Of a stretch of 31,125 nucleotides of DNA, positions 9,439 to 26,250 are shown piece after piece (position 1 is the stretch's first letter; every line of letters starts with the position of its first letter). The notes beneath the pieces were generated by a model. The model made no database searches. It was not told where the DNA came from and saw only the letters and a program-made list of their open reading frames with translations. Source of the stretch: a virus (lineage: Duplodnaviria; Caudoviricetes); IMG/VR virus record IMGVR_UViG_3300027887_000038, positions 1 through 31,125 of that record, one strand, 5' to 3'. The translations under genes were made by a program, and so were the position numbers.

Positions 9439-12039
9439 ATGGCGAAATTCAGCGACCTCATCGTCAAAATCACGGGAGACGCGAGTGGTTTCAACAAAAC
9501 CACGAAACAGGTCAGTGATAGCCTGGAGGGCTTATCAACCGACGTGCTGAAGGCGGGCGGCAGCTTTTCCGCACTTGGGAAATCATTCACCTCCGCGCTA
9601 GGCCCACTGGTGGGAGCCTCCTCGGTCGTCGCCATAGGGACCGCGGCCTTCGGGGCGGCGCAGGACTTTGAGGAGGCGATGAGAAAGATCGCTTTTGCGA
9701 CGGGGGCAACACAGGAAAAGCTGAAGGGCCTCGGGGAGAGTTTCAAAAACGTCTATGTTCAGACGGGCGCTGACTCGGGCCAAGTGGCCGGCGCGATTTC
9801 GATGATCGCCCAGCGATCAGGATTAGCGGGGCAGGCGCTAGAAACCATGGCGCTAAGTATGCTCAAGTTCGCCAAGGTGGGAGGCGTTGACGTGTCTGAA
9901 GTCGTGCCCCGCCTGACGCGGCTTTTCGGGTCGTGGAAGATCGCCACGGAAGACCAAGCCGGTGCGATGCAATTCCTCCAGTCGGTATCGCAGCGCACGG
10001 CTGTCCCGGTCACTCAACTGCTCGACCGACTGACGCAGTTCGGCGCGCCCCTGCGCGAGGTCGGCCTATCGATGGCCGATGCTGCGGTGATGCTGGCGAA
10101 GTTCGAGGCCGAGGGATTGAACGTCGAAGAGGTCATGGCGGGGATGCAAAGGGCAGCCGCCAAATTCCTCAAGACTGGCATGGACCCCGGCCAGGCGTTT
10201 CAGGCCGTCATCAAGGGAATACAGGACGGCACGATCAGCGCCGAGAAGGCTATCAAGTTGTTTGGCACGAGAAGTGGGTTGGCGCTAGTGGAAGCGATAC
10301 AGGCTGGTCGATTTTCTGATGTTCTAAGTGGGCAATTGAAAGAAGGCATCGCCAACGCGGCTAAAGGCGCCGCGCCTCCGAAGGCACTGGCGACCGAATG
10401 GAAGCAGTTTTACCATGACATCGAAATCAACGCGCTTGAGCCCCTCGGTAGCGGCCTATTATGGATCGCTCACAATGCGATGGAGGGCGCGAAGATCATC
10501 AGCGGCCTATTGAAGGAACTGGGCGCGAACGTCATCAAGTTCTCGACGGGCTGGGTTAGCGCGCTGGCGGACGCTGGCAAGAAAACCGCTGGGCTACTGT
10601 TCCCATCAGCGCAGTTGCCCTATTCGCAGCCGGGGCCGAAAGCGATCCCGACCGCCGCGACGGCGCAGGCCCCGTCTACCGCCGCATGGATGGACAGTGC
10701 CAATCGCATTCCTTCTGTGCTGCCTCCGACGAAAGAAGAACTGGCAGAGCAGAAAAAGCGTCTGGAAGCCAGCATCAAGGTCGTCTATGACTACTGGGAC
10801 AGGTACCAAACGGCGTTTGAGAAGTTGCAGGAAGAAGGACTTACGGGGGGCGCGACCGTCCCCGCGCGTTGGATGTCTGGATTGGTGGACATGATCGACA
10901 AGACGAAGGAATATCGCGCGATCCAAGCCAGCCTGAAGACAGTCAATGATGACCTCGCGAAGAATGAAGCAGAATGGGCACAAAAGACATGGGAAGCGCG
11001 GCAGAAGGTAAACGAGTCGGCGAAGGAAACGATTGTCGTTACCACAACCGTATCGGACATCCTGAGAGAGAAGTTCGCTGGCTCTCTATCCGCAGCAGAC
11101 AATGGCCTGCTGGCAATTTACGAATCGCAATCGCGCTATAACGATCTCCTTAAAGCATTTGGGATTACAAGCCGCGAGATCGCCAGTGTCGATCTAGAGT
11201 CGCTTCGTAAGAAACTGGAAGAGCTTGAGGTTTATGCAAGGTCCAGCGCGGGGGCTTTCCTGGACTTCCAGGATGCCTATGAAAAGGTCCAGAAAAAAAG
11301 GGCAGATGTTGAAGAGGGAGTAAAAATACCGACGGCTGACCTTTCAAAGGATGCGAAGAAATCCTCTGCCGCGATGCAGCAAGTCTCCCTCGTGGTCAAC
11401 GACGTTGCGCGCGGCCTTACCGACGTGATCTTCAAGGCTGGGACGTTCGGCGACGTCATGAAACGCATGGCTATCGACGTCGGCAAGGCTATCACGCGGA
11501 GCATTATCGAAGCCGCATTGAAGCCACTTATCGAAAAGCTGACCAAGATCATAATGGACGCCACGAAGCTGTCCTCTATCTTTGGCAGCGGCACATCGGC
11601 GGCGGGTGGTGCCTCCGGGGCGGCGCAGGGCGGGGCCGCGAGCGGATTCGGCGGTGCAGTGGGTGGCATGGTCGGAATGATTTCCGGCATCGTCTCCGCA
11701 ATTGGCTCAATCGGAACCTGGATTTCGACCATACGCCTTGAAGGCACGATGAACGGTGTGGAGTGGAACACCCGGAAAGCCTCGATCCACCTCGAAACGC
11801 TAGTAAACAACGCAAACCAGTGGTGGCCGAAGATTAACGACGTCACAACGGCCATTTGGGCATTCCGCGACCTCGCCCTCGGCTGGGGCTTCCCCGACAG
11901 CATCGGCGGCGCGGCTGCGGCTGCCGGCGGCGCGGGTGGCTACGGAGTGCAGATCAACGTCACCGGGAGCTTCATCGGCTATCGGGATATGGATAGTTTC
12001 GTTGACGAGTTGGTGCGCCGGATCAAGGCGCGACTGTAA
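9439..12039 (+). CDS. Tail tape measure protein (TP901-like core)
   Basis: 866 aa, Ala/Gly-rich and helical; N-terminal LIVKITGDASGF; AQDFEEAM..IAFATGAT; follows the chaperone genes. Confidence 0.93.
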   Translation: MAKFSDLIVKITGDASGFNKTTKQVSDSLEGLSTDVLKAGGSFSALGKSFTSALGPLVGASSVVAIGTAAFGAAQDFEEAMRKIAFATGATQEKLKGLGESFKNVYVQTGADSGQVAGAISMIAQRSGLAGQALETMALSMLKFAKVGGVDVSEVVPRLTRLFGSWKIATEDQAGAMQFLQSVSQRTAVPVTQLLDRLTQFGAPLREVGLSMADAAVMLAKFEAEGLNVEEVMAGMQRAAAKFLKTGMDPGQAFQAVIKGIQDGTISAEKAIKLFGTRSGLALVEAIQAGRFSDVLSGQLKEGIANAAKGAAPPKALATEWKQFYHDIEINALEPLGSGLLWIAHNAMEGAKIISGLLKELGANVIKFSTGWVSALADAGKKTAGLLFPSAQLPYSQPGPKAIPTAATAQAPSTAAWMDSANRIPSVLPPTKEELAEQKKRLEASIKVVYDYWDRYQTAFEKLQEEGLTGGATVPARWMSGLVDMIDKTKEYRAIQASLKTVNDDLAKNEAEWAQKTWEARQKVNESAKETIVVTTTVSDILREKFAGSLSAADNGLLAIYESQSRYNDLLKAFGITSREIASVDLESLRKKLEELEVYARSSAGAFLDFQDAYEKVQKKRADVEEGVKIPTADLSKDAKKSSAAMQQVSLVVNDVARGLTDVIFKAGTFGDVMKRMAIDVGKAITRSIIEAALKPLIEKLTKIIMDATKLSSIFGSGTSAAGGASGAAQGGAASGFGGAVGGMVGMISGIVSAIGSIGTWISTIRLEGTMNGVEWNTRKASIHLETLVNNANQWWPKINDVTTAIWAFRDLALGWGFPDSIGGAAAAAGGAGGYGVQINVTGSFIGYRDMDSFVDELVRRIKARL

Positions 12040-12051
12040 GGAGCTTTCACC

Positions 12052-12468
12052 ATGAAAACCATGCGCCTTGCGCTCATTCTCTGCGCCCTCGCGGTTACTG
12101 CGCTGGCGCAAACCACGCTCACGGTGACAATCGCCCAGAACGAGAGTCTCAGTTCGGCCATACAGTTGCGCCCAAACTCGAGCGGGAACGCCTGCACGCC
12201 CGCGGCGATCCTCATTCCCTCCACATGGGTGACGGCCACCACGATGACGTTTCAGGCGAGCGACACCGGCGTCTCGGGCACCTATGCGGAACTAGTGGAC
12301 GAGTACGGTAGCGCCGTGGCGATCACCGTTGCGGCCAGCAAATACATCCGCCTCTCGCCCGGCGATTGGTGGGGCGTCAATTGGCTCAAGGTTCGGTCTG
12401 GAACATCAGGCTCGCCGACAAATCAGACCGAGGCGGCGGGAGTAGTCATCAAGATCATCTGCAAGTGA
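12052..12468 (+). CDS. Small beta-sandwich protein with a predicted Sec signal peptide
   Basis: AAGGAG RBS; MKTMRLALILCALAVTALA|Q; the mature part has ESLSSAI, MTFQASD, LKVRSGTSGSP and two Cys. Confidence 0.75.
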   Translation: MKTMRLALILCALAVTALAQTTLTVTIAQNESLSSAIQLRPNSSGNACTPAAILIPSTWVTATTMTFQASDTGVSGTYAELVDEYGSAVAITVAASKYIRLSPGDWWGVNWLKVRSGTSGSPTNQTEAAGVVIKIICK

Positions 12469-12474
12469 GTTGAG

Positions 12475-15400
12475 ATGGCCTGGGACATCACAATCGGATC
12501 GCATAACGCGCTGAGTGAGATCTGCCGGGGCACTCTGTCCATCGGCAGAGAGCTAAACTCGCGCGCGACGTGCTCCTTCCGCCTGATGTCCAAGACGGGC
12601 ACCTATACCCCGGCAGTCGGCGCGCCAGTCAATATCTACCATGATAACGCGCGGCTATATGGCGGATTCATCTGGAGCGTTGACACCAAGCGGTATAAGG
12701 GCTCCGTCCTGCTAGAGCACTCAGTGACGTGCGTGGATGCGTCATTTGTAGCCGACCGGCGCACCTGTTACGAGCACGCCTGGCTGAATGCCACGGGCGG
12801 GCAGATCGTTACCGACATCGTCGCCAACTCGCTTAATGGCGAGGGCGTGACATATACCTACGTCTCAGCCGGGCCGACCATTGCCGGCGAGTTCGGGATG
12901 TACGGTTACCCCACCGTTTCCGAGGCCATCCAGAAAGTTTGCGACCAGACGCAGAGCTATTGGTATATCGATGGCGACATGAACGTCCGGTATTTCAGCC
13001 AGACCTCTCTCGGATATGATGCGCCGTTTGACATTACCACCGACAACGCGATGGAGGCGAACCTCTTCACCTCGCTGGAGGAATACGCCAACCGCGTCAT
13101 CATCAACCTGTCGAAGTTCCTGCTCGCCGAAGACACCGAGACGTTCGTTGGTGATGGCGCGACGACCTACTTTCAACTTCAGCACCCGGTAGCGAGCGAG
13201 CCGGTGGTGAAGGTCGATAACGTCGAGAAGACGGTCGGAATCTCAGGGTCGGATACCGGGAAAGACTGGTATTGGTCGCAGGAAAGCGCGACCATCGCGC
13301 AGGATTCCGGGGCGGCTCCGCTGACGGGTGGACAGACACTTGCGGTTACCTACGTCGGCATCGACAGTGCATATGCTTCGGCACAGAACGCATCACAGAT
13401 CAGCGCCCGGGCAGCGATAGAAGGTGGGACCGGCGTTCATACAAAGGTGATTCAGTGGACCGAAGCGGCGAACCGCAGCAAGGCTGACGCGGTGGCCGCT
13501 GCGGAACTGGACCGCATTGACGAACTGCCCGCCGTCGTCACTTATCGCACCAACGATGTCAATTGCCCCGACCTGGATCTACTCAAGCCGGGGGACAAGC
13601 AGACGATCTTCGGCACGGAATACGTCCTCCGCTCAATCAAATGGGAAGACGATCCGCACGGCAACGTCCTTTGGGCTCAGATTGAGGGGGTGCGTGGACC
13701 TCTCCTCGCCACGCTAGTTGACCTCCTGCGCGGAACTGAGCCCGGCGGGGCGGGCTACTCTCCCACCGTGCCAGCGGTCGGGGAGTCTGGGGATTACACG
13801 CCCCCAGCCGCCCCGAATCCTCCTACCTCAGTCTCGCTCTCCATCGCGAGCGTCGGTGAGGATGAATACTATGCGGTGATTTCCTGGCTGCCACCATCAC
13901 CTAGCGGTGGGACGGTCAAGTTCCTCGTCTATCTCGCGTTCTACGAGCACGGGACGAATACCGAAATACATTCGGTAACATTTGAGACATTCGACCAGCA
14001 TCGTATCACTACTTTTCCGGCTCCAAAGAGCGTCGATCCCGTCGATTGTGATGCTCATGCCTACGGAGTGAACAGCGCTGGAGAAATATCCGCGTCCTCC
14101 GCTTTCAGCACACCGAGACAGGTGATTCCGGCGAAAGGTTCATACAGTGATCCACCCGCGGCAACCGGCATCAGTCTGGCGGTGACGGCCTTTGACAAGG
14201 ACGGATTGCCGTATTTCTACATCAGCGGTACCGTGAATCCGGCAGCGGTGGTTGGTACGGGCAAGGGATATGCGATCCAAGTTCGAACCTATACCAACGC
14301 AGCCGGGGGGGATGCCTATAAAGACTGCGACTGGATGACGTTCACCGAGACCGCCGCGGAAACCAGCCCATTCACTTACTTGTCGGATGACTGGAAGCAG
14401 TCCGATAGCGCGCGATGGGTTCAGGTGCGAGTGGCGGCGATCAATGGATGGAACGAATATGGGGCGTGGACCTATTCGGGCGTCGAAAGTATCGGGGCGA
14501 GCCAGGGTGCTGATCTCGCGAAGTCTCGCAAGTCATCCCTGGGCGCTGGGCTGACGAAGGATGCCAATGGTAAGCCCGCCAGCCTAACCAGTAGCGCGGG
14601 GTTGCAAAACGGCGATTTCGAGTATGACCTCGATGGATGGGACATCCTCGGGTCGCCGGCGGATGTTTTCGTCTATACCGCCGACAAATACAGCGGCACG
14701 AAATGCTGCCGGATTAATGCACACTCGAGCGCATGGTGCGGACTCAGCCAGAATCTTCCATTCAAATACGGACAGTCGGCGCGTCTGACTTGCTGGTACA
14801 AGGGCAACCTCGATGGCTATACCGTTTCAGTACTGAGATTTCTCGATAAAAACCTCGCCATCGTGGGGACTCAATCCTTGCCATCAGCCACGATGGACAG
14901 CACATGGCATAAGGTTGATGTCGCCGCGACGGCTCCGGCCGATACAGCCTACATCCAAATCTATCCCCTCTCCACGAATAGCGCCAATGGTTATGCGATT
15001 GTCGATCTTGTCTCGCTTACCATCGTGGATGTGGACATGACATATGCGGCCAACTTCAATACGTCGGAGTTTGAGGTAGTCACTTCCACGTTCCGCACAA
15101 AAGTGATCGCCGCGGATAAGATCTACGTCGGCTCCGTCCTCCGGGTGGGCGGTGGAACCGGGGCGTATCTCGCCACGTTCAATGGGGCCTCGGATGGGCA
15201 GATTGCCTGCTATAGCGCGGCGAACGCGCTAACCGCATGGATGGGGAAAAACGGTAGCTATACGGGCATTTGGGGCGGTGAGGCGTGGATCGGTGGAACG
15301 AGCCCAGCCAACGCGCAACTGACCGCCACAGGTGGAACGCTGGCGGCGAACGGCATGACGTTTGTTCTGTCGAAATCTGTCACTATCAGCGGTGCGCGCA

Positions 15401-15978
15401 CGATCCGAACCACGATCAACCCGGCGGCGCAGAACGGGCTATATTGCGGGCTCCAAGTGGAGGATGTCACCCCGTCTGGTTCCTATGCCGGGGAGGGTGT
15501 CTTTGTTCAGCCGTACAATGTGTATCTGAAGCGCCCGACGGGTGGCAGCGGGGCCGAGTCTCTCCTTGGTCAGGGCACTCTCCAGTTGGGCTACTCGACC
15601 ACCCTTGGAGTGAATCTCCAAGGATCTGCTGCGGGCGCGGGAGTTCTGGCACTTGATCCCGGCGCGGCCACGACCGCCAGCTCGAGCTATATCTCCATTC
15701 ACGGCGATGTTGTGCTGCGGAGCCGGCGCAGCGCCATCACGCACATCGCAGGCACATATCCATCGGACGATTATATGACCGGGACGGCAGGCGCTTCCTA
15801 CACCAGCACCGAGCAAGACATGCTCGCTTTCCTCTACGGAACCGGCGCCGCTCCGGGCGGGCATCCCTACCAGTACGGCGGCTGGTTGCATCGCGCCACG
15901 GCGGCGCTCAATGACCACTCGGCGCGCATCGCGTCAATCCTCTCCGCTCTCGAATCCCATGGACTCATTGAAACCTGA
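12475..15978 (+). CDS. Tail tip hub/central fibre protein with FN3-like repeats, a CBM4/9-like domain and a trimeric fibre C-terminus
   Basis: N-terminal hub-like region (WYIDGDMNVRYF); FN3-like segments (PNPPTSVSL..ISWLPP; VQVRVAAINGWNEYGAW); LQNGDFEYDLDGW...YSGTKC carbohydrate-binding-module pattern (about 14602-15018); C-terminal ILSALESHGLI. Confidence 0.8.
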   Translation: MAWDITIGSHNALSEICRGTLSIGRELNSRATCSFRLMSKTGTYTPAVGAPVNIYHDNARLYGGFIWSVDTKRYKGSVLLEHSVTCVDASFVADRRTCYEHAWLNATGGQIVTDIVANSLNGEGVTYTYVSAGPTIAGEFGMYGYPTVSEAIQKVCDQTQSYWYIDGDMNVRYFSQTSLGYDAPFDITTDNAMEANLFTSLEEYANRVIINLSKFLLAEDTETFVGDGATTYFQLQHPVASEPVVKVDNVEKTVGISGSDTGKDWYWSQESATIAQDSGAAPLTGGQTLAVTYVGIDSAYASAQNASQISARAAIEGGTGVHTKVIQWTEAANRSKADAVAAAELDRIDELPAVVTYRTNDVNCPDLDLLKPGDKQTIFGTEYVLRSIKWEDDPHGNVLWAQIEGVRGPLLATLVDLLRGTEPGGAGYSPTVPAVGESGDYTPPAAPNPPTSVSLSIASVGEDEYYAVISWLPPSPSGGTVKFLVYLAFYEHGTNTEIHSVTFETFDQHRITTFPAPKSVDPVDCDAHAYGVNSAGEISASSAFSTPRQVIPAKGSYSDPPAATGISLAVTAFDKDGLPYFYISGTVNPAAVVGTGKGYAIQVRTYTNAAGGDAYKDCDWMTFTETAAETSPFTYLSDDWKQSDSARWVQVRVAAINGWNEYGAWTYSGVESIGASQGADLAKSRKSSLGAGLTKDANGKPASLTSSAGLQNGDFEYDLDGWDILGSPADVFVYTADKYSGTKCCRINAHSSAWCGLSQNLPFKYGQSARLTCWYKGNLDGYTVSVLRFLDKNLAIVGTQSLPSATMDSTWHKVDVAATAPADTAYIQIYPLSTNSANGYAIVDLVSLTIVDVDMTYAANFNTSEFEVVTSTFRTKVIAADKIYVGSVLRVGGGTGAYLATFNGASDGQIACYSAANALTAWMGKNGSYTGIWGGEAWIGGTSPANAQLTATGGTLAANGMTFVLSKSVTISGARTIRTTINPAAQNGLYCGLQVEDVTPSGSYAGEGVFVQPYNVYLKRPTGGSGAESLLGQGTLQLGYSTTLGVNLQGSAAGAGVLALDPGAATTASSSYISIHGDVVLRSRRSAITHIAGTYPSDDYMTGTAGASYTSTEQDMLAFLYGTGAAPGGHPYQYGGWLHRATAALNDHSARIASILSALESHGLIET

Positions 15979-16192
15979 CCATATCCCGCTGACCGAGACG
16001 GAGGCCGCTTATGTGGCCGAAACGATTAGAGACATCATCGCCGCGCAGGCCCAGCATAGCGGAGCGGTCGCCATGCTGATCCGCTCTCGAGGACTCGCCG
16101 GCCAGTGGTCGCTTTCACCTGACGGCCGCGCATTGATCCGTGTTCCGCAAGTTCAGAATCCGCAGGAGGGCTCCTATGGCGTTGCCAATTGA
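15959..16192 (+). CDS. Hypothetical protein, possible tail fibre chaperone (77 aa)
   Basis: MDSLKPDHIPLTETE...; overlaps the end of the hub gene; function guessed from position only. Confidence 0.55.
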   Translation: MDSLKPDHIPLTETEAAYVAETIRDIIAAQAQHSGAVAMLIRSRGLAGQWSLSPDGRALIRVPQVQNPQEGSYGVAN

Positions 16193-16252
16193 GGGCGTTG
16201 GCAAACCAGCCACATTTGATACAGCGCACGCCAGCAGAAGGAGAAAAGTGAA

Positions 16253-16633
16253 ATGCCGCTAATTAAAGGCGTCGAGCAATACGCGATCCTGGTGACCTTG
16301 CAGGTAAATGCCGAAGGGCATGACCCGGTCACGATCATAATTCCACAGTCAAAGGCTCTGAAGATGCTGCGCAGGGTGCAGGACGCGGTCCTCCCGTTGT
16401 CTTCGGTGCCGATGTACACCAGCATCCTGGACCTCGTTCAGAAGTCGCTCCAATCCGGTCTGTTTGCAGAACTGGACAGGATCTACCAGGATTCCCCAAC
16501 CGCCGAGGAGGTACTCCTGCAGGAGCAGGCAGCTGCCATCGAAACCCGGCTGAAAGCCGCTCGAGCACAGCGCGACTGGATGCAGCCGGCGCCAGCCGTC
16601 GTCGGCGTCCAGGCCGTTTCCGAGATTGGCTAG
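16253..16633 (+). CDS. Hypothetical protein with C-terminal coiled coil
   Basis: AAGGAG RBS; 126 aa; EEVLLQEQAAAIETRLKAARAQ. Confidence 0.7.
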   Translation: MPLIKGVEQYAILVTLQVNAEGHDPVTIIIPQSKALKMLRRVQDAVLPLSSVPMYTSILDLVQKSLQSGLFAELDRIYQDSPTAEEVLLQEQAAAIETRLKAARAQRDWMQPAPAVVGVQAVSEIG

Positions 16634-16645
16634 AAGGAGCCAACT

Positions 16646-16993
16646 ATGCGATTGATCGTCACAGCGATTCTCATCATCATCCTGCTCTCGGTGGTGGCTA
16701 GCGCAGCCGGCCGCACAGTCACTCTGACGTGGCAGGACACCCAGAACCCTACGGGCACGACCTACAATGTCTACAAGGGAGTGGGCGACTGCGCCACAAG
16801 TAATCTTGCCTTCGTCAAGATCAACACCGCCCCCGTTGCTGCCCTCACTTACACCGAGAGCAATGTAGCGACAGGCCAATACTGCTACTACGTCACCGCC
16901 TTCGGTGGCGGCATGGAGAGCGCGCCATCGAACAAGGCGCCGGCCCTGGCTACACCTTATGCGGCAACGGTCCTTGTGGTGGTGGTTCAGTGA
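16646..16993 (+). CDS. Fibronectin type III-like protein with a predicted signal peptide
   Basis: AAGGAG RBS; MRLIVTAILIIILLSVVASA|A; FN3 signature VTLTW...YNVYK...YCYYVTAF...ESAPSN. Confidence 0.85.
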   Translation: MRLIVTAILIIILLSVVASAAGRTVTLTWQDTQNPTGTTYNVYKGVGDCATSNLAFVKINTAPVAALTYTESNVATGQYCYYVTAFGGGMESAPSNKAPALATPYAATVLVVVVQ

Positions 16994-17080
16994 GGAGACT
17001 CAACAGCGGAATCACCGGAGCCCTTGTTACCCAGACCTTTTCTCAGGACCTGATCATCGGCTGCCGCTAAGGGGAACACC

Positions 17081-18112
17081 ATGAAATGCTTTGTCTCGCT
17101 CTTCATTATGACACTGCTGGCGTTGGCGCAAGCTCCGCCGCCGAGCAGCAGCGGCGGCCTTGCAACAGGCTTCAAGATTCGCGGCGGCACCCTGCCGGCC
17201 ACTCCATGTCAGGACGGTCTCGCCTTTCAGAAGACGTCCGGCCCGAGCATGGGCCCTTACAGCTGCACCAACGGCGTCTGGGTGTTGATGGCCGGCAGCG
17301 CGGAGCCTGTGGACAACTACAGCGTATCGTTCACCAGCCAGACCTCCGTTGTGGCGAACCACGCCGCCGGAACAACGAAGGTGCTCATCTCCTGCTACGA
17401 CACGTCGGGGGTGTTGGTCGAACCGGCGTCAATCACGCTGACCGACACGAACAACGCGACCATCACTTTTCAGACCGCACAAAGCGGGACCTGCGTCGTC
17501 AACACGGTAGGCGGCGGCGGCGGGGGGGGCGGCGGCATCACCACACTGAACGGCCTGACCATCGGGTCACAGACGTTTACCAACGACACAAACGTCACAG
17601 TGACGTCCGCCGGTTCGGCCCACGCGATGGGATGGGCCGGGACGCTGTCCGTCGCGCGGGGCGGAACGGGTGCCGCATCTGAGGCCAACGCCAGGATCTC
17701 CCTGCTGCCCTCATACACCAGCAACGCCAGCAGGTGTCTCAAACTGAACTCGGGGGCGACCGACGTTGAGTGGGCGACCTGTACTGACCTGACGGCGGGC
17801 TCCGGCATCGAAATCACAGACGGCGTCGTCAGCATGACCGACGCCGTAGCCCAGCAGCTGTACGGCACCGACTCTTTGAACTTCCCGTCCATCAACAACG
17901 CGGCCTGCTCTGACCTGACGCTGACGGTTACAGGCGCTCAGATCGGAGACACGGTCGCCGCGGGCTGGCCGGCATCCCTACCGGCGGGTGTTTTCGGAAC
18001 GATGTTCGTCTCCATCGCGGACACTGTCGTCGTCCGCGTCTGCAATCTGAGCGGATCCTCTGTCGATCTCGCTGCGTCGGCATTCTCGGCACGCATCATT
18101 CGGAGCTTCTAG
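17081..18112 (+). CDS. Fibre/adhesin-like protein with a predicted signal peptide
   Basis: MKCFVSLFIMTLLALA|Q; Gly9 linker; phage fibre motif GTLSVARGGTGA; C-terminal LTVTGAQIGDTV...VSIADTVVVRVCN head-like domain; 8 Cys in the mature part. Confidence 0.8.
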   Translation: MKCFVSLFIMTLLALAQAPPPSSSGGLATGFKIRGGTLPATPCQDGLAFQKTSGPSMGPYSCTNGVWVLMAGSAEPVDNYSVSFTSQTSVVANHAAGTTKVLISCYDTSGVLVEPASITLTDTNNATITFQTAQSGTCVVNTVGGGGGGGGGITTLNGLTIGSQTFTNDTNVTVTSAGSAHAMGWAGTLSVARGGTGAASEANARISLLPSYTSNASRCLKLNSGATDVEWATCTDLTAGSGIEITDGVVSMTDAVAQQLYGTDSLNFPSINNAACSDLTLTVTGAQIGDTVAAGWPASLPAGVFGTMFVSIADTVVVRVCNLSGSSVDLAASAFSARIIRSF

Positions 18113-18116
18113 GGGA

Positions 18117-18866
18117 ATGAAAATGAAACAGCTACTCATCCTCACCATCGCAGCCGTAACCTGTCTGGCGCAGACCTCGATCAACGGCTCCCGCACGATC
18201 CAGGGAGCCATCAACTACGCCGCATCCTCGGCGGGAACAGACACCTACGCCATTACGTTGTCACCCGCCCTGCTCGGGTATGTGACCGGGGCGTGCTACA
18301 CGTTCACGGCTGACGTGGCGAACGTCGGCACCGCCACCTTGAACATCAACGCGCGTGGCGCGAAGACGATCACAAAGGCAGTCGGAGGAGTGACCACCGA
18401 CCTGTCCGACAACGACATTCGCGCCGGCCAGGTCGTCAACGTCTGCTACGACGGCACCAATATGCAGATGCAAAGCGCGGCCGGGAACGGTCTCAGCGCG
18501 AACAGCGGGATCCGCAACTTCGGCGCCTCGTTCGACGGCGGCGGGTCTGCCCTGACCACACGGCAGTCCCTACCGATAGTCGTTCCCTACGCCTGTACGA
18601 TATCGGCCTGGAACATTTTGGTAGCGCCGTCAGGAACGGCCACCGTGAAGCTGTGGAAGATCGCCTCTGGAACGGCCATCCCCACCATCAGCAACGTCAT
18701 TAACACCAGCGGCATCGCAATCTCAACCGGTACGGCTGTTCGCTCCACCACAGTCACCGATTTCACGACTACGACGGTGGCCGCGAACGACATCATCATC
18801 TTTTCGGTTACGGCTGTCGCCACCGCCACACAGTTGGTTGTGAGCATCCAATGCGATGCGTCCTAG
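18117..18866 (+). CDS. Tail-fibre-domain protein with a predicted signal peptide
   Basis: MKMKQLLILTIAAVTCLA|Q; GTDTYAITLSPA...ANVGTATLNINARGAKTITK...DIRAGQVVNVCYDGTN is a module I recognise from phage fibres; followed by a second beta-sandwich; 4 Cys in the mature part. Confidence 0.8.
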   Translation: MKMKQLLILTIAAVTCLAQTSINGSRTIQGAINYAASSAGTDTYAITLSPALLGYVTGACYTFTADVANVGTATLNINARGAKTITKAVGGVTTDLSDNDIRAGQVVNVCYDGTNMQMQSAAGNGLSANSGIRNFGASFDGGGSALTTRQSLPIVVPYACTISAWNILVAPSGTATVKLWKIASGTAIPTISNVINTSGIAISTGTAVRSTTVTDFTTTTVAANDIIIFSVTAVATATQLVVSIQCDAS

Positions 18867-19192
18867 AGTTCAGGAAGCCCCAAGTGGAAGCCCCGCCCAT
18901 CAACCCGACTCTGATGTCGAACCTGGCCACCGATCCAGAGAGGCTCATGCCGGAGTCGCTTCGCCAAGTCTTGGCCCAGAGCGAGCCCGCGCGCGTGGAT
19001 CCGGTGTCAAAGTACGGCGCCCCGCTGCTCGACTCCTCGGGAAAGTGGCTGAGGCACTTTGTTGACGTTCGCGGCGGGAAGGCCCACACGCTCTGTGGGC
19101 TGGAATTGGTCGGTGTGGATCGACGGGCCGGTGTGAGCGCCACCTGTCCGAAGTGTGCGGATGAACATACAAGACTTCGTGGAGGTTGGTAA
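18851..19192 (+). CDS. Small putative zinc-binding protein (start uncertain)
   Basis: H...HTLCG...TCPKC; fills the gap between neighbours, and its stop overlaps the next ATG (TAATG). Confidence 0.55.
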   Translation: MRCVLEFRKPQVEAPPINPTLMSNLATDPERLMPESLRQVLAQSEPARVDPVSKYGAPLLDSSGKWLRHFVDVRGGKAHTLCGLELVGVDRRAGVSATCPKCADEHTRLRGGW

Positions 19193-20508
19193 TGGCACTA
19201 AATAGCGCGATTGTTTGGGAAATTCGCACCACCGGCAGCGACAACAACGGCGGCGGGTTTAAGACAGGTGCGTCTGGGACCGATTATTCTCAGCAGGCGT
19301 CGGCCCAGAAGAGCAGCACTGACCTTGCCGTTCACTCGTCCACGAACACGATGGTGAAGCCCAACGCGGCCGGGGTTTCCGCCAACGATGTCGGGAACGT
19401 GGTCCAGATCACCGCAGGAACGGGGTGGACCGCCGGCTTCTACGAGATCGTGTCGCAGGACGGTACCTGGTGGACGCTGGACCGGTCGCCGTCTGCGGCG
19501 GGCAATGCGAACCTAGCCACCTACGCCATGGGTGGCTGCCTCCTGTCCCCCGGGAAAATTGGCGGGATAGTCCTTACCGGCCACATCGTCTACCTCGCGT
19601 ACGGTAGCTATACGATCTCGTCCGCCACATATAACGTGGCCGCTGGATGCGTCCAGACCACGGCCGGTAGGGCCATTTTTGTCGGATACGACTCGACCCG
19701 CACGGTGTACAATACCGACTCCAATCGCCCGACATTCACCATGGGGGTGGGGGTCACCAGCACTTCCGCATTCCACGGCTACAACTACTCGCATTTCAGG
19801 AACATCATCGTCGACTGCGCCAGCCGGACAAGCTCTAACGGCTTCCAGGGCGGCGCCCTCTTCACCCGGTGCAAGGTAATAAACACCGCCAACGCCGGGT
19901 TCTACACTGGGACGGCCTATGGCTGTGAGGTCACGTCTTCGGGCGGCGCTGGCGCGTTCTACAACAACTGGTGCTATCGGTGCAGCGCCCACGGGAACTC
20001 CTGCCATTCATATGAAAGCAGCTACTCCTACGAGTGCGTAGCCTACGGGAACACCAACATTGGGTTCTACGAAGGAATTGCCATCAACTGCGTGGCCTAC
20101 GGAAACACCGGGGCTAATGTTCATGGATTTGTTCGACAGAACTACGACGGCTACTGGATCAACTGCATCTCCGTCGGCAACGGCGGGTACGGGTTTCAGA
20201 ACCAGTACACCAATCACTGGGCTGGGATGATGGTGAACTGCTTCACCTACAACAACACGTCTGGGGGTATCTACCAGAGCGCCTGGGAAGCTGGAAACGT
20301 CACCGGGTCGGCCGACCCGTTCACCAACGCGGCGTCCCAGGACTTCTCGCTCAATAACACGGCCGGGGGCGGGGCTGCCTGTAGGAACGCCGGAATTCAG
20401 AGCTTCTCCACGGATCTAAACGCTAGCATGTTGAGCTACGTCGACATCGGCATGGCTCGACATCAGGACGCTGGTGGAGCAGGCGGCGGTTCTGCTGTGT
20501 GGGCCTGA
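19192..20508 (+). CDS. Right-handed parallel beta-helix (pectin-lyase-like) protein, possible tailspike/depolymerase (438 aa)
   Basis: GGAGG upstream of ATG 19192; repeating C.AYGN...GF coils; C-terminal DPFTNAASQDFSL...VDIG; no signal peptide. Confidence 0.8.
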   Translation: MALNSAIVWEIRTTGSDNNGGGFKTGASGTDYSQQASAQKSSTDLAVHSSTNTMVKPNAAGVSANDVGNVVQITAGTGWTAGFYEIVSQDGTWWTLDRSPSAAGNANLATYAMGGCLLSPGKIGGIVLTGHIVYLAYGSYTISSATYNVAAGCVQTTAGRAIFVGYDSTRTVYNTDSNRPTFTMGVGVTSTSAFHGYNYSHFRNIIVDCASRTSSNGFQGGALFTRCKVINTANAGFYTGTAYGCEVTSSGGAGAFYNNWCYRCSAHGNSCHSYESSYSYECVAYGNTNIGFYEGIAINCVAYGNTGANVHGFVRQNYDGYWINCISVGNGGYGFQNQYTNHWAGMMVNCFTYNNTSGGIYQSAWEAGNVTGSADPFTNAASQDFSLNNTAGGGAACRNAGIQSFSTDLNASMLSYVDIGMARHQDAGGAGGGSAVWA

Positions 20509-20519
20509 GGGGAAGAACC

Positions 20520-23500
20520 ATGAGAACGATCCTGATTTGGCTCGCACTCTCGGCACTTCCTGTTTTCGGGCTCGACAACTGCGTCAGGCTGACTGAAGGG
20601 GCCTCCCAGGCTCAGACGAACCGCCCTATTACTATCTATCGCTTCTTCGCCAAGGGTGAGATCGCGAACTACCCGAGGCCGAAAGTGGATGGGGATTTCC
20701 CAGGCGCGTGGCAGGCCGACGTGAAGAACCGCTGGCAGGACAACAGCGTCCAGGCGGCGTACATCTCGTGGCGGCAGTCCTTCATTTCTGGCCAGACAGT
20801 GACGGCGTGCTTTGAAGACTCCGCCAGCACGAGCAGCGACCCGTCCAACCCCGGGCTCACGCAAACAGAGTTGGTCAACTTCAACACCGGCGGCGGTACC
20901 GGGTCGTGGGACGTGGCCGTCTCGACGACACTGGCCGGCATCGAGCACGTGATGAACGCGAAGACCATGATCTCTGGAGGGGCGTTCTCGTACTGGCTCC
21001 GTGGTCCCGTCGTCACGCGAGTGCTCGTCGAGGACACCACCAGTCCGAATCCCCTCTACGACACCGGTTACGAGTACGACTTCACGGAGAACACTTCTGA
21101 CGGCTGGACAGCCCCGCTTGGGACATGGATGAACTCAAGCGTGGCGAAGTGGCACATGTTGACGTGGCAACCGATGAGGATCTCAGGAAGCAGCGTCACC
21201 AAGGGAGCCACCACAACATTTACTCGCGCCGCCCATGGGCTGACCAACGACCAGTCCGTTGGCATTTACTGCGGAACACAGATCGGCTACGGTAACTGCT
21301 CGGCCAACTGGAGCACGGTGCAGGCCGAGTACACCATCACGGTCACCGGGCCAGACACCTTCACGATCCCGCTCGACTCCTCGGCCTGGGCCGCACCGTC
21401 GTCATCCGACTACTTCAACTTCGCGGCATCGAGATTCCAACTGGGTGTTGGCGACGCGAACACATATAACCCGGACAACGCACTCGCCTTCCGGCTGAAC
21501 GGGAAGCAGTACGAGGTCCTGGTGCGCGACGGCGGCGTCCAAACCACGTTCGCCCTGACCGCTTATGTCTCGGACTCCAGCAATCTGGGCGACCAACTGC
21601 CGTCTTATGCCTCTTTCGTTGCCGATGGCGCGGCAAAGAGGATCACCGTGTTCTACTGGCGTGGGGGAGAATCCCAACAAACGATAACGGCCTGTCCTTC
21701 AGGTTGCGACATTACGGTGTCCGCGGATTTCTTCAGCAAGTCGTTCCTGCCACTGAAGGTCAGCACAGACGGTAGCGGGAACGCGGTGCCCATGCAGGCG
21801 GCAAACCTGCTTCGCGGCTCCCGATGGAAGGAGCCCACCGCCGAGAAATACAAAAGTTTTCACCCGACATTCATGTTGTCTTTCTACCCGGCAACGGGCG
21901 GAGCCAGCCCTTGGTCCGGGGTTGAAGCGGAGACCATCCTGATGAACCCTTGGACCAGCCGGTTCCAGGGCTTGTTTCTAGAGAACCTGTCAATCAGGAC
22001 CGAGGCGACTCTCTCGACGGAGCAGTTCAGCCAGAACTATTGGGTCCTTTCAGCCACAGGGGCCTTCTCGCGGGTGGTGTGGAGCGGAACGCCGCCGGCA
22101 CGTATCGACTACGATTTCAACCTGGACTACATGGTTCATTCGAGGATTATCCCGCCGTTCGATTCGCGGAACCCCGAGCCGGAATCCACGTTGACGACTC
22201 TTCTGTCCGATTACGACAGTTCGGTTGGCACTGAGGACGTACAGCATTGCATCACCCAGCAAGCCAACTGCAACGGCGGATACTCCTGCTGCGGGTTGTG
22301 GCTGAAATCCATGGGAGCAGCCGGCGGGCGCGGAGATCTGGGTCTCCATCCCAACTGGTACGCCATGGTGTTGTTCACCATGGGGAACAGCAATTACGCG
22401 CTTCAGAAACGCCGTGACGCCTGGGACAAGTTGCTCGTCGGAAACGGGGATGCCGGATTCAGTTGGACGATCCACCACCGGGAGTCAGACACCAGCTACC
22501 CCACCTACAACTACCCTGGTGACGCCTCGGCTTCATCCTTTGGGAGGTACATCAGCCTCCGCGCCAGACCACAACTGTTCAACCTGGGTCGATGGGCCGA
22601 TCCAGGTGGAGCGCAAGCCTTCTCTCCATCCTGCACGGCGGTTCCATGCAGTTGGGCTCACCCTGACGCAATCTACCGCAGAAATGACGGCAAGGACACT
22701 GCCCATCAGCCGAATGTTTCGGCGCTGCCGTTTCTCCTTACCGGACGCTACAGCTACCTCCTCTCAGTGTGGGCTTGGGCGAGCTTCAACATCTCCAGCG
22801 CCAGTCCCGGCTGTGGGGCTGTCGGAGCCAGATGCAACGACCTGGGCGTGGACTATCTGGATGGAGCCCTTCGTGGCATGGCCTGGAATCTGCGTTCTTA
22901 CGTGTACGCGGCGGTCCTGACTCCGGACGGCATGCCTGAGAAGGATTACTTCAGGCACATCGCCAGGGTGCAGGATGAGTTCTTCGAGGGGCAGTTCGGC
23001 ATCACGAACGGCAATGCCACTTCCACCACGTGCACGGGGGCCGATGTCGTCGGCCAAGCCACCGACTATGCCAGTTCGACGCACTCCCCGTTCTCCAACA
23101 ACGCCACCAATGGGATGGTCCCCAACGGCTACAACCGCCGTTTTGGTCTGGTCGAGGGAGGCATAGCGGCAGGCTACAAGCCCACGATCACCATCAACGG
23201 AACTCAGGTTCCGGCTGCAAGTGTTTGCCTGCAGGGAACGGTTGGATGTTCCTGGTACTACAGACCCGGAGATGCCTTTGTGGAGCAGGACGCCTCCCTG
23301 CCGCCGCTCGCGTTGGGCGACACGATCAGCGTTACTGGTTACCGCACTAGATTCTCATCACCGTGGTGTGCCGGATACAACTTTACGAACGGCTACTCTG
23401 GGGCGCTTGGCTTCCCGGGAATCTGGAATAGCCCAAGGTACGACAACCCGCAGGTCAACGAGTACACGTCCAACCCGCCGTGGGCGAACGCACCACACAA

Positions 23501-24443
23501 CGGCATCGGCAATGGGGGGCAGGCTTGGTACATGAGCGTCTTCATGGGCGAGGTCTATGCATGGGCAAGGTCGCTTGGCATACAGTCCACCGGGGCAAAG
23601 ACGATGTTCCAGTTCTCTGGCGAGAGGATGGCAAGTTGGTTCATCGGCCTCGCCACCTCCAGATTCACCAACAAGCTCTGGCTCTCACTCTACAGTGGAC
23701 CATCTTGGAACAAGGACGGCCGGCCCTTCCAGAACTGGTCGGAAATCGCCGAATATGTCGTCCCGACCTTGACCTTGACGAACGCAATTGACTCTGCAAC
23801 CACATCCATCGCCGTCACTGCCGCCAAGGGACCATTTTTCATCGCCGCGCTCAACAGCACACCCGTGTATTGGAAGGTGGACAACGAGTACATCCGTGTC
23901 TGTTCATGGACGGGGAATACGGCCACCGCCACGGTTTGCCCTGATGGGCGTGGCTACCTTGGCACCGCCGCTGCGGAACACAGCCAGGGTGCGTCGATCC
24001 AGGTGTACCCGATCTTCCACAACACAGTGGATTATACGGCCAATGCGCTCATGGCTTTGGCATTCGCGCAGGATATCAAGACGCCGACAGGCAGCGGCAA
24101 GCAGGCTTGGGAAAACCTTGTCTCGGTGATCCACGACTACAACACCTCGAGCTGGAATAACCAGCCTAAGCTCCGGATCAGGGCGAAGGACGAGATCGCC
24201 AACCTCCGGGTCGCCACCGCAGCGAGCTCAGTGACACTGCGTTACGTGGCGCCGGACGGACGGGCCTGCAAGTACGCTGTCGCGCCTGGTCTGTCCTCCA
24301 GCGACGACTCCTCTGACACGAGCGACGGAGGAGGCAGCCGGGAGAGGGCGGTGACAGTCTCCGGCCTCAACGGCGGTCAATCCTATGCCTACCGTGTTAC
24401 CTGCGGGACTGCTCGAAAGACGAACCAGGTTGTGGTGCCGTAA
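20520..24443 (+). CDS. Large multidomain protein with a predicted signal peptide (1307 aa); possible alpha-toroid glycan-processing scaffold with inserted phage beta-modules
   Basis: MRTILIWLALSALPVFG|L; N-terminal QADVKNRWQDNSV and WLRGPVVT (YetA/PcRGLX-like beta region); GGRGDLG, DTAHQP..LPFLLTG, LRGMAWNLR; FN3-like C-terminus (LNGGQSYAYRVTC). Confidence 0.75.
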   Translation: MRTILIWLALSALPVFGLDNCVRLTEGASQAQTNRPITIYRFFAKGEIANYPRPKVDGDFPGAWQADVKNRWQDNSVQAAYISWRQSFISGQTVTACFEDSASTSSDPSNPGLTQTELVNFNTGGGTGSWDVAVSTTLAGIEHVMNAKTMISGGAFSYWLRGPVVTRVLVEDTTSPNPLYDTGYEYDFTENTSDGWTAPLGTWMNSSVAKWHMLTWQPMRISGSSVTKGATTTFTRAAHGLTNDQSVGIYCGTQIGYGNCSANWSTVQAEYTITVTGPDTFTIPLDSSAWAAPSSSDYFNFAASRFQLGVGDANTYNPDNALAFRLNGKQYEVLVRDGGVQTTFALTAYVSDSSNLGDQLPSYASFVADGAAKRITVFYWRGGESQQTITACPSGCDITVSADFFSKSFLPLKVSTDGSGNAVPMQAANLLRGSRWKEPTAEKYKSFHPTFMLSFYPATGGASPWSGVEAETILMNPWTSRFQGLFLENLSIRTEATLSTEQFSQNYWVLSATGAFSRVVWSGTPPARIDYDFNLDYMVHSRIIPPFDSRNPEPESTLTTLLSDYDSSVGTEDVQHCITQQANCNGGYSCCGLWLKSMGAAGGRGDLGLHPNWYAMVLFTMGNSNYALQKRRDAWDKLLVGNGDAGFSWTIHHRESDTSYPTYNYPGDASASSFGRYISLRARPQLFNLGRWADPGGAQAFSPSCTAVPCSWAHPDAIYRRNDGKDTAHQPNVSALPFLLTGRYSYLLSVWAWASFNISSASPGCGAVGARCNDLGVDYLDGALRGMAWNLRSYVYAAVLTPDGMPEKDYFRHIARVQDEFFEGQFGITNGNATSTTCTGADVVGQATDYASSTHSPFSNNATNGMVPNGYNRRFGLVEGGIAAGYKPTITINGTQVPAASVCLQGTVGCSWYYRPGDAFVEQDASLPPLALGDTISVTGYRTRFSSPWCAGYNFTNGYSGALGFPGIWNSPRYDNPQVNEYTSNPPWANAPHNGIGNGGQAWYMSVFMGEVYAWARSLGIQSTGAKTMFQFSGERMASWFIGLATSRFTNKLWLSLYSGPSWNKDGRPFQNWSEIAEYVVPTLTLTNAIDSATTSIAVTAAKGPFFIAALNSTPVYWKVDNEYIRVCSWTGNTATATVCPDGRGYLGTAAAEHSQGASIQVYPIFHNTVDYTANALMALAFAQDIKTPTGSGKQAWENLVSVIHDYNTSSWNNQPKLRIRAKDEIANLRVATAASSVTLRYVAPDGRACKYAVAPGLSSSDDSSDTSDGGGSRERAVTVSGLNGGQSYAYRVTCGTARKTNQVVVP

Positions 24444-24444
24444 G

Positions 24445-24561
24445 GTGACGGCATTGAGATTCCCCATCCACTATCACAACCGGCCTCTCGACGTGCTGAT
24501 GGTGATTCTGATTCTGCTGGGAATCCTGGTGATGGTGTTCGACGTTCGGTGGTGGCGATAA
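24445..24561 (+). CDS. 38-aa single-transmembrane peptide (below the ORF-track cutoff)
   Basis: GTG start 1 nt after the previous stop; MTALRFPIHYHNRPLDVLMVILILLGILVMVFDVRWWR*; fills the intergenic gap exactly. Confidence 0.55.
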   Translation: MTALRFPIHYHNRPLDVLMVILILLGILVMVFDVRWWR

Positions 24562-24594
24562 ATGGAAGTACAAATCAAAGTGACTGGCTGTAAC

Positions 24595-24783
24595 ATGAGC
24601 AAAGACACACTGACTACGGTAACCGGCGTCATACTTGGCGCTCTGATCGCGGCCAATATCGACTGGGCCAAAGCGACTGCCGGCGATAAAGGCGAGATCA
24701 TGAAGGCCATCGGGGCGGCGTTGGTCGCGTTCCACGGCTACCTGACCAACAAAAGCGACACGCCTCCCGCCGCGAAGGGATAG
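24595..24783 (+). CDS. Putative holin-like protein with two hydrophobic segments (alternative start 24562)
   Basis: TLTTVTGVILGALIAA and AIGAALVAFHGYLTNK; 62 aa; located after the tail genes. Confidence 0.6.
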   Translation: MSKDTLTTVTGVILGALIAANIDWAKATAGDKGEIMKAIGAALVAFHGYLTNKSDTPPAAKG

Positions 24784-24787
24784 CGCC

Positions 24788-25138
24788 ATGGCAGCCATCG
24801 CAATACCAATCATTGCCGCCGCCGCTCCATTGATCGCCCCACTGATCACGAGTTTGATCAACAAGGTCGAGGGACTCTTCGGAGCCAAGACAGGGCCAGC
24901 AAAACTCGAGGCGGTCGTCGGCGCGACTCAGCAGATCACGCAGGCTCTCAGCGCGGCTGGCAAACTCCCCGGTGTGTTGACGGCCGACCAGATCACCGCA
25001 ATGGTCGAGGCGATGGTGCAGGCGCTCAAGGCGCAGGGCCAATTGACGACCTCCGCTACAGCCGTTACGCCAGTCGTCATTGAAGGCTCGACGACCTACG
25101 AAATCACGGGTGGCACAATTGTGCTGCTCAAGAAATAA
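24788..25138 (+). CDS. Putative holin-like/membrane-associated protein
   Basis: Hydrophobic N-terminus, then VEGLFGAKTGPAKLEAV and ITAMVEAMVQAL, reminiscent of LL-H-type holins. Confidence 0.55.
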   Translation: MAAIAIPIIAAAAPLIAPLITSLINKVEGLFGAKTGPAKLEAVVGATQQITQALSAAGKLPGVLTADQITAMVEAMVQALKAQGQLTTSATAVTPVVIEGSTTYEITGGTIVLLKK

Positions 25139-25149
25139 GAAAGGACTTT

Positions 25150-25575
25150 ATGACTCAGTTCAAGCGATACGGGATCATTCGCAACATCAACGCCGCTGGC
25201 GTAAATGAGATGTATCTCTCGACCTACGCAGAGGCAAAAGCACTCCAAAAGTACTACGAGGCTTGCGGCGCGAAGAACCTGGAGATCTTCGTGGCCCTCA
25301 TGGGGGACGTGGCGCAACCCGAGGAGATCATCGGTGGACCGGAAGCATCCGCCGACAAACTGCCGTGGACGATCACGGTGAGGGGAGCCACGCTGCGATC
25401 CAATGTCGCCGATGCGATTGCGGTTCTCAAGGCGGGCCAGCCGAACATCGTCCAGACCACTCAGCGCGTCCTCAGTGACATCGGCCTCTTGTGGGGATTC
25501 ATCGACGGTCCCGACTGGCGCTTCCAGGCCGACGTGGCGGCGCACCAGGCCCAGATGCAGGCGTGCGGGCTCTAG
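25150..25575 (+). CDS. Hypothetical protein (141 aa)
   Basis: AAGGA RBS, coding-like codon bias, no recognised motif. Confidence 0.7.
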   Translation: MTQFKRYGIIRNINAAGVNEMYLSTYAEAKALQKYYEACGAKNLEIFVALMGDVAQPEEIIGGPEASADKLPWTITVRGATLRSNVADAIAVLKAGQPNIVQTTQRVLSDIGLLWGFIDGPDWRFQADVAAHQAQMQACGL

Positions 25576-25582
25576 CAAGGCC

Positions 25583-25743
25583 ATGGCGGCGCAGGATGGC
25601 CTGTCAGAGGTGGAGCGTAAGCTCATGGCCCTCGCCTCCGAGGTTGCCGTCCTGCGCGCCTAGTATTTGTGATTGCTCTGATCGGCGCCCTAACCGGCCT
25701 CACGTCCGTACTGCTCGATCTACTGACGCGAGCCACTAGATGA
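25583..25743 (+). pseudogene. Frameshifted small coiled-coil plus transmembrane gene
   Basis: MAAQDGLSEVERKLMALASEVAVLRA ends at TAG 25661-25663; the -1 frame continues LVFVIALIGALTGLTSVLLDLLTRATR* to 25743. Confidence 0.5.
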
Positions 25744-25866
25744 GGCGTTATGGCTCCAGACATCATCTTCAGTTCGGCCGCGCAAGCAAACTGTCATCGC
25801 CTGGGCAACCGTTGGCGGTTTCAGTTCGCATTCATCCGATTTATCGTCGGCAGAGATAGGTGGCCC

Positions 25867-26250
25867 ATGTACCATACCCTCGCAGCATTCATGTTGTGGG
25901 CCTCCTTGGAATCGATCCCGAATCTTCCAGGTGTCGGCGGCGCTCTCCAGGATTCCATTGCGTTGGGATTCGCTATCCTTTTTTGGGTTGCGCTGACGAG
26001 ATCCTATCGCGAACATCGCCGGGATCTGAACGAGCGGGACCGGATTCACTCAGATCGGATTGAGAAGATGGTCATGAACTTAGAGGCGCGGGAGGAGCGA
26101 GCCTTGAAAGTGCTTGAGGCCAACATGACCATGAAAGGCCAGATGATCGAAAGCTCGAACGAGCTGAAGTTGGCCGTCCGCGAGCTGCTGGACAAAAGGT
26201 TCTGCCCCTTCGACGGGGAGGCTCATCCGGCCCGCCAGAAGCAACCCTAG
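25867..26250 (+). CDS. Membrane protein with coiled coil, BhlA-like holin architecture (alternative start 25750)
   Basis: SIALGFAILFWVAL transmembrane segment followed by a charged coiled coil; last gene of the late cluster. Confidence 0.6.
   Translation: MYHTLAAFMLWASLESIPNLPGVGGALQDSIALGFAILFWVALTRSYREHRRDLNERDRIHSDRIEKMVMNLEAREERALKVLEANMTMKGQMIESSNELKLAVRELLDKRFCPFDGEAHPARQKQP

Follow-up and report, generated by a model that had tools for sequence, protein, structure and literature searches.

Does a tailed phage send some of its late proteins out of the cytoplasm, and do such proteins act on the virion, free of it, or on the host surface? The question is raised by the IMG/VR record IMGVR_UViG_3300027887_000038, a single contig of 31,125 bases that was analysed in its entirety (hereafter the window). 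A preliminary description of this DNA had claimed that five co-oriented open reading frames (ORFs), beginning at 12052, 16646, 17081, 18117, and 20520, have signal-type N-termini; starts and N-termini were borne out, all five on the + strand, and we name the genes by these first positions. Judged by comparison of sequences, the signal-bearing feature of this tail operon is real and conserved, and three of its genes form a cassette that also occurs in bacterial chromosomes.

Signal peptides and paired cysteines in a tail operon

Matches in Pfam and PHROGs identify within the window the late operon of an HK97-type siphovirus, with terminase, portal, protease, capsid, connectors, tail tube, and tape measure. 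An in-house heuristic, which looks for a basic n-region, an uncharged hydrophobic core, and a small-residue site and was written with the five proteins known, flagged 5 of 34 window ORFs, precisely these five, compared with 109 of 6800 composition shuffles (1.6%) and 4 of 1257 internal positions. The starts, checked against mis-calling, each have a Shine-Dalgarno match of 4–7 nt at the ATG, and among alternative in-frame starts at codons 13–60 there is a single such match (codon 56 of 20520). Homologues keep the signal, a check that the preliminary description had proposed: in the 16646 family the heuristic flags 17 of 21 members, a fragment being among the four that it does not flag. The leaders vary in sequence and are conserved in pattern, and the 20520 family keeps L-[DS]-N directly after the predicted cleavage site.

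The mature proteins have two (12052), two (16646), eight (17081), four (18117), and 22 (20520) cysteines, all even numbers, and in three of the five an odd extra cysteine is located within the signal. By these comparisons, the five proteins are shown to carry predicted cleavable Sec-type signals and paired cysteines. Export and oxidative folding, as previously proposed, are well supported because the signals are conserved, two distinct fibre domains have Cys pairs in the forms that bear a signal, and Cys counts of the mature chains are even. The fibre and structural motifs quoted earlier for several of the ORFs are also all present. The interval holds the five genes as described, but it includes leaderless genes as well, among them the large receptor-binding candidates 12475 and 19192. 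Similarly, the tight packing attributed to the region holds for the gaps of 4–87 bp between tail-region genes but not for one of 325 bp 3' of 18117, which contains a small ORF.

Phage modules behind the signals

The modules of the signal-bearing proteins are phage-derived and comprise a tail-fibre domain, a fibre-tip domain, a jelly-roll resembling decoration proteins, and FN3. The first cassette gene (17081..18112, + strand, as are all genes given below) encodes a signal, a Cys knot, a phage fibre module (phrog_21918/16122 in PHROGs), a GTLSVARGGTGA repeat, and a C-terminal fibre-tip domain with Cys276 and Cys321. The nearest Atlas clusters of this tip are mostly viral (feature scores <0.9, structural template modelling (TM) scores 0.80–0.89), and a search for it among cultured phages gave a single record, an uncultured one. 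The second gene (18117..18866) combines a signal and a TSINGSRTI-type N-terminal peptide with a tail-fibre domain (Cys60, Cys110) and a C-terminal phrog_35197 domain (Cys160, Cys246). The tail-fibre domain, of ~90 aa, matches the gp47 tail fibre (PDB 9b45, E 1.9e-9), is shared with the annotated long tail fibre of Escherichia phage Pondi and the tail fibre of phage phiOH2, and matches 30,154 clusters at E 0.001. These known fibres are leaderless, whereas 18117 has a signal, Cys pairs of its own, and no recognised anchor; 113 of 149 top representatives of the domain lack signal and Cys pair.

The third cassette gene (20520..24443) encodes a signal followed by a 1290-aa protein of an unclassified family with a C-terminal FN3 domain. 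Its structure model, made from a 7-sequence alignment, has a predicted local distance difference test score (pLDDT) of 37.5, and a Foldseek search with it returned nothing at E 0.001, the top rows being noise (TM 0.05, root-mean-square deviation (rmsd) ~18). Profiles of 7 and 23 sequences matched only FN3-type chains in the PDB, weakly, and there was no usable match in the Atlas. A lead to PcRGLX-like polysaccharide lyases was not confirmed, and family members have no Pfam match; PF21346 was matched elsewhere in G001, away from the 20520-family loci. We infer that 20520 probably binds or cuts host polysaccharide.

Upstream of the cassette, 12052 (12052..12468) has a signal at approximately residues 1–19, followed by Cys48 and Cys137 and a predicted jelly-roll (pLDDT 84). 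Its family occurs among phage head and tail genes and is mostly leaderless, signals being present in 5 of its 26 members; a profile search of the PDB gave no match, and cultured phages have no match for a 12052-family protein. The best structural match is in the capsid of phage 7-7-1, to a chain of 135 residues (Z 7.6, rmsd 4.3, 110 residues aligned), identified by this length as the capsid decoration protein gp002 of Agrobacterium phage 7-7-1 (PDB 9HZ8), a jelly-roll of similar size; the decoration proteins of 7-7-1 are disulfide-bonded (PMC12796354). The top matches, including YomS and XepA, span a middling Z of 7.0–7.6, PNGase F is also tied, and identity to gp002, YomS, and XepA is 9–16%; the modelled fold may be like that of a capsid decoration protein. 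The remaining protein, 16646 (16646..16993), consists of a signal and a single FN3-like domain, a label that comes from its sequence pattern, Pfam giving no match. Across its 21 homologues, Cys49 is invariant and Cys80 is present in at least 90%, and a homologue of 49% identity adjoins the cassette in the viral locus L148.

Signals and cysteines among relatives

For the domain of 18117, signals and cysteines were compared in its 150 best representatives, of which 149 begin with Met. A Cys hairpin is present in 28/30 signal-flagged versus 6/119 unflagged proteins, and five of these six look like signals missed by the heuristic; Cys counts are even in 26/30 and 58/119, respectively. The window 18117 is without that hairpin and has a different Cys pair of its own, found together in L116 and L118. 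A Cys-masked tree of the domain, used as a test of independence, places 35 of 35 signal rows in one 43-row group (Shimodaira–Hasegawa-like approximate likelihood ratio test, SH-aLRT, 92) among leaderless fibres, with six changes. Because of the kinship among rows, the Fisher p of 3e-22 is not independent support, and the association of signal and cysteines is near one evolutionary event, not 30.

The 17081 tip has two cysteines in 53 of 57 rows, which include many duplicates or rows cut at locus ends; the remaining four, with zero or one, are leaderless phage proteins. Signal genes cluster by phage, with flagged neighbours numbering 16/61 around signal-bearing domains (nine loci) versus 11/134 around leaderless ones (19 loci; three neighbours uncalled). 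Two signal-bearing proteins with cysteines, P0046 and P0055, are 55–58% identical over ~290 aa to the leaderless P0040, starting from the first mature residues.

A cassette shared with Bryobacterales chromosomes

A Bryobacterales contig (L116) carries genes similar to 17081, 18117, and 20520 in the same order, amid EpsI and glycosyltransferase genes. Among 201 genomes of the order, the 20520 profile matches 26, strongly 20, and the 17081 tip matches 42. We took 20 regions from 18 of the 20 strong-match genomes, and 13 also have a 17081-like gene. None of the 20 matches the window terminase, portal, capsid, tube, or tape measure, as two prophage controls do, in a comparison that would miss distant prophages. 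The host copies of the 20520 family, where neighbouring genes were scanned in Pfam (some of the regions), mostly lie in polysaccharide gene clusters, beside genes for glycosyltransferase, Wzy, DegT, UDP-glucose dehydrogenase, and EpsI. The same leaders are found on the chromosomal copies.

Viral contigs with the cassette or its large gene, in regions of virion genes, include the T4-like L145 and L150, the podovirus-like L146, L147, and L149, the siphovirus L144, and L148. In L150 the cassette has gp6/wedge/gp8 on one side and DUF4815 on the other; in L145 it adjoins gp15 and the head-tail adaptor. Its middle gene is variable and often resembles 18117 in the N-terminal peptide only. The host-type leader is present at full length in 25 rows, all from bacterial loci (eight seeds, several duplicates), and in none of the viral cassettes.

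A tree of the 20520 family was made from 23 rows (7 phage, 16 host) after duplicates, near-copies, and rows of unclear context had been removed from 81; three of the host rows are labelled so from their gene neighbourhood in metagenome contigs, and a 42-row version was also made. Phage and host copies interleave in the 23-row tree, its starred branches forcing at least six phage-host changes, and phage monophyly is rejected (approximately unbiased test, p 3e-46). Over 1010 residues the protein of L145 shares 70% identity with a host copy, and it groups with five host rows at 100/100, so that capture by the phage from a host seems likely in this instance; GC of the cassette is 37% versus 61%. 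The window copy forms a long branch without a close sister.

Several related arrangements were observed alongside. The first cassette gene of L145 (7867-8922) begins with the N-terminal peptide type of the second gene, not the host-type leader, a hint that the docking peptide can be swapped. Some chromosomal members of the 20520 family are fibre-less, have a dockerin-like domain at the C-terminus, and occur in polysaccharide gene clusters (L239:6552-9047, L241:8001-10463). Cys-rich secreted fibre-module proteins of 1073–2798 aa are encoded in Acidobacteriota loci L128, L132, L135, L136, L142, and L143, apparently outside prophages.

Related prophages and the likely host

Siphoprophages related to the window phage are present in two Bryobacterales-order genomes, with a terminase match of 43% in one and tape measure and hub matches of 30–34% in both. 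Terminase matches of ~44% in cultured phages name no host. The related prophages, together with the cassette, point to Bryobacterales (Acidobacteriota) as the probable host of the window phage. In both prophages, tape measure and hub are separated by a gene for a secreted 160-aa protein (L262:125-607 and L263:6150-6632), and the hub is followed by a single fibre-like gene, which carries a signal, and then an integrase. The 160-aa gene takes the place of 12052, but homology between the two was rejected and they are unrelated.

Possible sites of action of the five proteins

During lytic growth in a Bryobacterales host, we propose, the five proteins would be exported and disulfide-folded in the periplasm while heads and tails are assembled in the cytoplasm. 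The products of 17081, 18117, and 20520 would form one chain, each fibre tip joining the next N-terminal peptide and the chain ending in the large protein 20520, with 12052 as a base of the capsid-decoration type and 16646 as a small binder. Once lysis ruptures the inner membrane, the folded proteins would dock on finished virions, the least secure step, and would add to the leaderless hub and spike instead of replacing them. The cassette itself is exchanged between phages and the chromosomes of hosts, in which it probably acts as a surface fibre.

Docking on preformed particles is known for decoration proteins and certain tailspikes, and T4-like phages are as a rule lytic. In two prophage loci, L131 and L133, a signal directly precedes a T7-type virion-anchor domain (phrog_1640 at E 1e-29 in L131, downstream of tail-tube genes; Pfam Phage_T7_tail weak in both), and the L131 fibre has no Cys in the anchor and four Cys further out. 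Of 13 signal-bearing proteins encoded in related loci, most had no anchor match in PHROGs for their N-terminal domains. Docking on virions, proposed in the preliminary description, is supported only indirectly, by the signal before a T7-type anchor in other phages and by the cassette among T4-like baseplate and neck genes; no anchor was identified on 17081, 18117, and 20520. Also in its favour are the similarity of signal-bearing P0046 and P0055 to leaderless P0040, the signal on the only fibre-like gene that follows the hub in the two related prophages, and the restriction of the full-length host-type leader to bacterial loci. We put the docking of exported, disulfide-folded accessory appendages on virions at lysis at about an even chance.

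A number of points weigh against docking. Neither Pfam nor PHROGs identifies a virion-anchor domain on the three cassette proteins, and the tree of the 18117 domain contains only one independent signal-Cys pair on starred branches, so that the association is not phylogenetically independent. Bacterial chromosomes have the cassette with no phage core genes in its vicinity, so that it can work with no virion, and in the related prophages the slot of 12052 is filled by an unrelated secreted protein, as expected of an insertion site for cargo. For 12052 itself, the fold match is middling, and YomS and XepA, neither of them known to be part of a capsid, score as well; two of the five signal-bearing family members are without Cys, making the signal-Cys link weak in this family, and leaderless P0004 and P0006 have Cys at similar positions. 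Export is not forced, given that the same phage has leaderless receptor-binding candidates (12475, 19192). Disulfides alone do not require export either: virions of phage 7-7-1 have disulfide networks and disulfide-bonded decoration proteins, and the available portions of the paper mention neither signal peptides nor periplasm (PMC12796354); disulfide-rich virions are likewise described in the Milano paper, the main text of which, as far as available, is without the words 'periplasm', 'Dsb', and 'cytoplasm' (PMC10811340).

One alternative is a free complex of the lytic cycle, in which fibre and large protein are released at lysis or act in the envelope to loosen host exopolysaccharide, allowing the progeny to escape or to reach neighbouring cells. 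The polysaccharide genes beside the host copies of 20520 and the lack of an identified anchor are in keeping with it, as are the presence of the cassette in T4-like phages, the lack of a promoter-like site of its own, and the resemblance of 12052 to YomS and the exported PBSX protein XepA, which is as close as that to a decoration protein. No enzyme family can be assigned to 20520, however, other phages combine a signal with a true virion anchor, and viral cassettes are without the host-type leader; we regard the free complex as unlikely, though a serious contender. Virion docking and the free complex share the lytic cycle as their setting, and that one or the other applies is probable.

Cargo for the host surface is a further, slightly less credible alternative, which we also consider unlikely: lysogens or infected cells would display a captured Bryobacterales surface-fibre cassette, with the role of an adhesin, a modifier of the capsule, or a decoy. 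The preliminary description had included a host-surface branch without having seen that the cassette is common to Bryobacterales chromosomes, and this adds real weight to it, with a strong 20520 homologue in 20 of the 201 genomes and a 17081-like gene in 13 of 20 regions, none with window phage core genes. Interleaving of phage and host copies, the integrase of the related prophages, and the Bdellovibrio fibres discussed below, by which bacteria display signal-bearing phage-like fibres (PMC10769870), agree with cargo. Yet the genes lie inside the late operon at gaps of 4–87 bp, a consensus scan found no promoter-like site on the + strand between 9000 and 26493, T4-like phages keep the cassette at 70% identity to a host copy despite the difference in GC, and 12052 belongs to a family of phage structural modules, not to a host family. 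Very improbable, finally, is that the hydrophobic N-termini are not export signals but mis-called starts, uncleaved anchors, or assembly peptides. The calls rest on an in-house heuristic, but its false-positive rate is low, ribosome-binding sites stand at the starts, and the pattern-conserved leaders recur in homologues and on chromosomal copies.

Leaderless neighbours and genomic setting

The tail region opens with the tape measure protein (9439..12039; Pfam PhageMin_Tail, PHROGs tape measure), which has no signal peptide. Between 12052 and 16646 lie a leaderless central tail or hub-like protein with a CBM_4_9 domain (12475..15978; E 1e-5) and two or three small leaderless ORFs (15959..16633), two of which were scanned without a Pfam or PHROG match, the third frame being short. 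The hub label of 12475 comes from its position after the tape measure and a weak Phage_GPD match of a homologue (E 0.04); homologues of 34% identity are found in the two Bryobacterales prophages, and we consider it a candidate for cytoplasmic receptor binding. A small beta module is common to 12475 (~residues 240–300) and the exported 20520 family, including chromosomal copies.

Between 18117 and 19192, the cassette region is split by a small leaderless ORF with a CxxC motif (18914..19192), for which no family was found and which may be an insertion. It is followed by a leaderless 438-aa spike-like candidate with 13 Cys (19192..20508), whose repeat pattern has, in our reading, a beta-helical look. 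This protein has three leaderless viral homologues, and a signal-bearing protein of L147 contains an internal match to its N-domain.

Downstream of the signal-gene region, Pfam scans identified small hydrophobic genes and recombination genes. Two small hydrophobic ORFs (24595..25138) are possibly of holin type, a weak assignment (Phage_holin_6_1 E 0.008 for 24788, below the cut-off), and no endolysin was found in Pfam or PHROGs among the scanned window ORFs, including 24440-26250. With no endolysin found and hydrophobic ORFs that are weakly holin-like, the contig may be incomplete. Terminator-like matches occur in the window at chance level only, and the five signal-bearing genes equal the remaining window genes in GC content, overall and at third codon positions (GC3). 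Elsewhere in the window, a 408-aa ORF (5852-7078) between the head-tail adaptor and head closure genes matches phrog_1574 (unknown) and Methyltransf_24; its N-terminal part looks glycosyltransferase-like to us, and a modifying enzyme amid neck genes is unusual.

Relation to known systems

Filamentous-phage coat proteins, Lom/Bor, spanins, and signal-anchor-release (SAR) and signal-bearing endolysins are known exported phage proteins. They resemble the window proteins in using the host Sec route but serve in virions assembled at the membrane, as lysogenic cargo, or as enzymes of lysis, and none is a fibre or decoration module from the tail operon of a tailed phage. No report of signal-bearing or exported virion fibres of tailed phages was found in the literature, supplements such as virion proteomes lying outside the search; a paper on Acidobacteriota phages does not contain 'signal peptide' in the available main text (PMC11924767), and the available part of PMC13721041 offers only passages on type VI secretion systems. 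The preliminary description knew of no described equivalent, which held in these searches for tailed phages, but a bacterial analogue exists: the mosaic adhesive trimer (MAT) fibres of Bdellovibrio bacteriovorus share a ~130-aa domain after the signal, and 13 of 21 end in S74 (PMC10769870). MAT fibres share with the window proteins a signal peptide followed by a mosaic of phage fibre modules, and the chromosomal Bryobacterales copies look like a functional parallel. The differences are that MAT fibres are bacterial, whereas the window genes belong to the late operon of a phage and are accompanied by a gene for a large partner, and that no S74 was found in the window with Pfam. The mature N-termini of the window proteins differ from one another.

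Taken as a whole, our proposal is that tailed phages of Acidobacteriota may use a second, periplasmic assembly line, by which fibres, a decoration base, and a large polysaccharide-directed protein are exported, folded with disulfides, and clipped onto virions at lysis, and that the cassette, which would act with a different leader as a cell-surface fibre in Bryobacterales, has been exchanged at least six times between host chromosomes and siphoviruses, podoviruses, and T4-like phages; this full statement is tentative, and somewhat more doubtful than docking by itself. If only lysogen surface cargo is involved, the system would be a new variant of MAT-like adhesins. The exchange with Bryobacterales chromosomes offers a traceable case of one fibre cassette that serves virus and cell surface alike, and it provides a host order and two related prophages to work with. 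On the usual view, the particles of tailed phages are assembled entirely in the cytoplasm, and periplasm-matured parts that join at lysis would, if true, be a new assembly step, through which phages could use disulfide-stabilised adhesins and enzymes of the host type.

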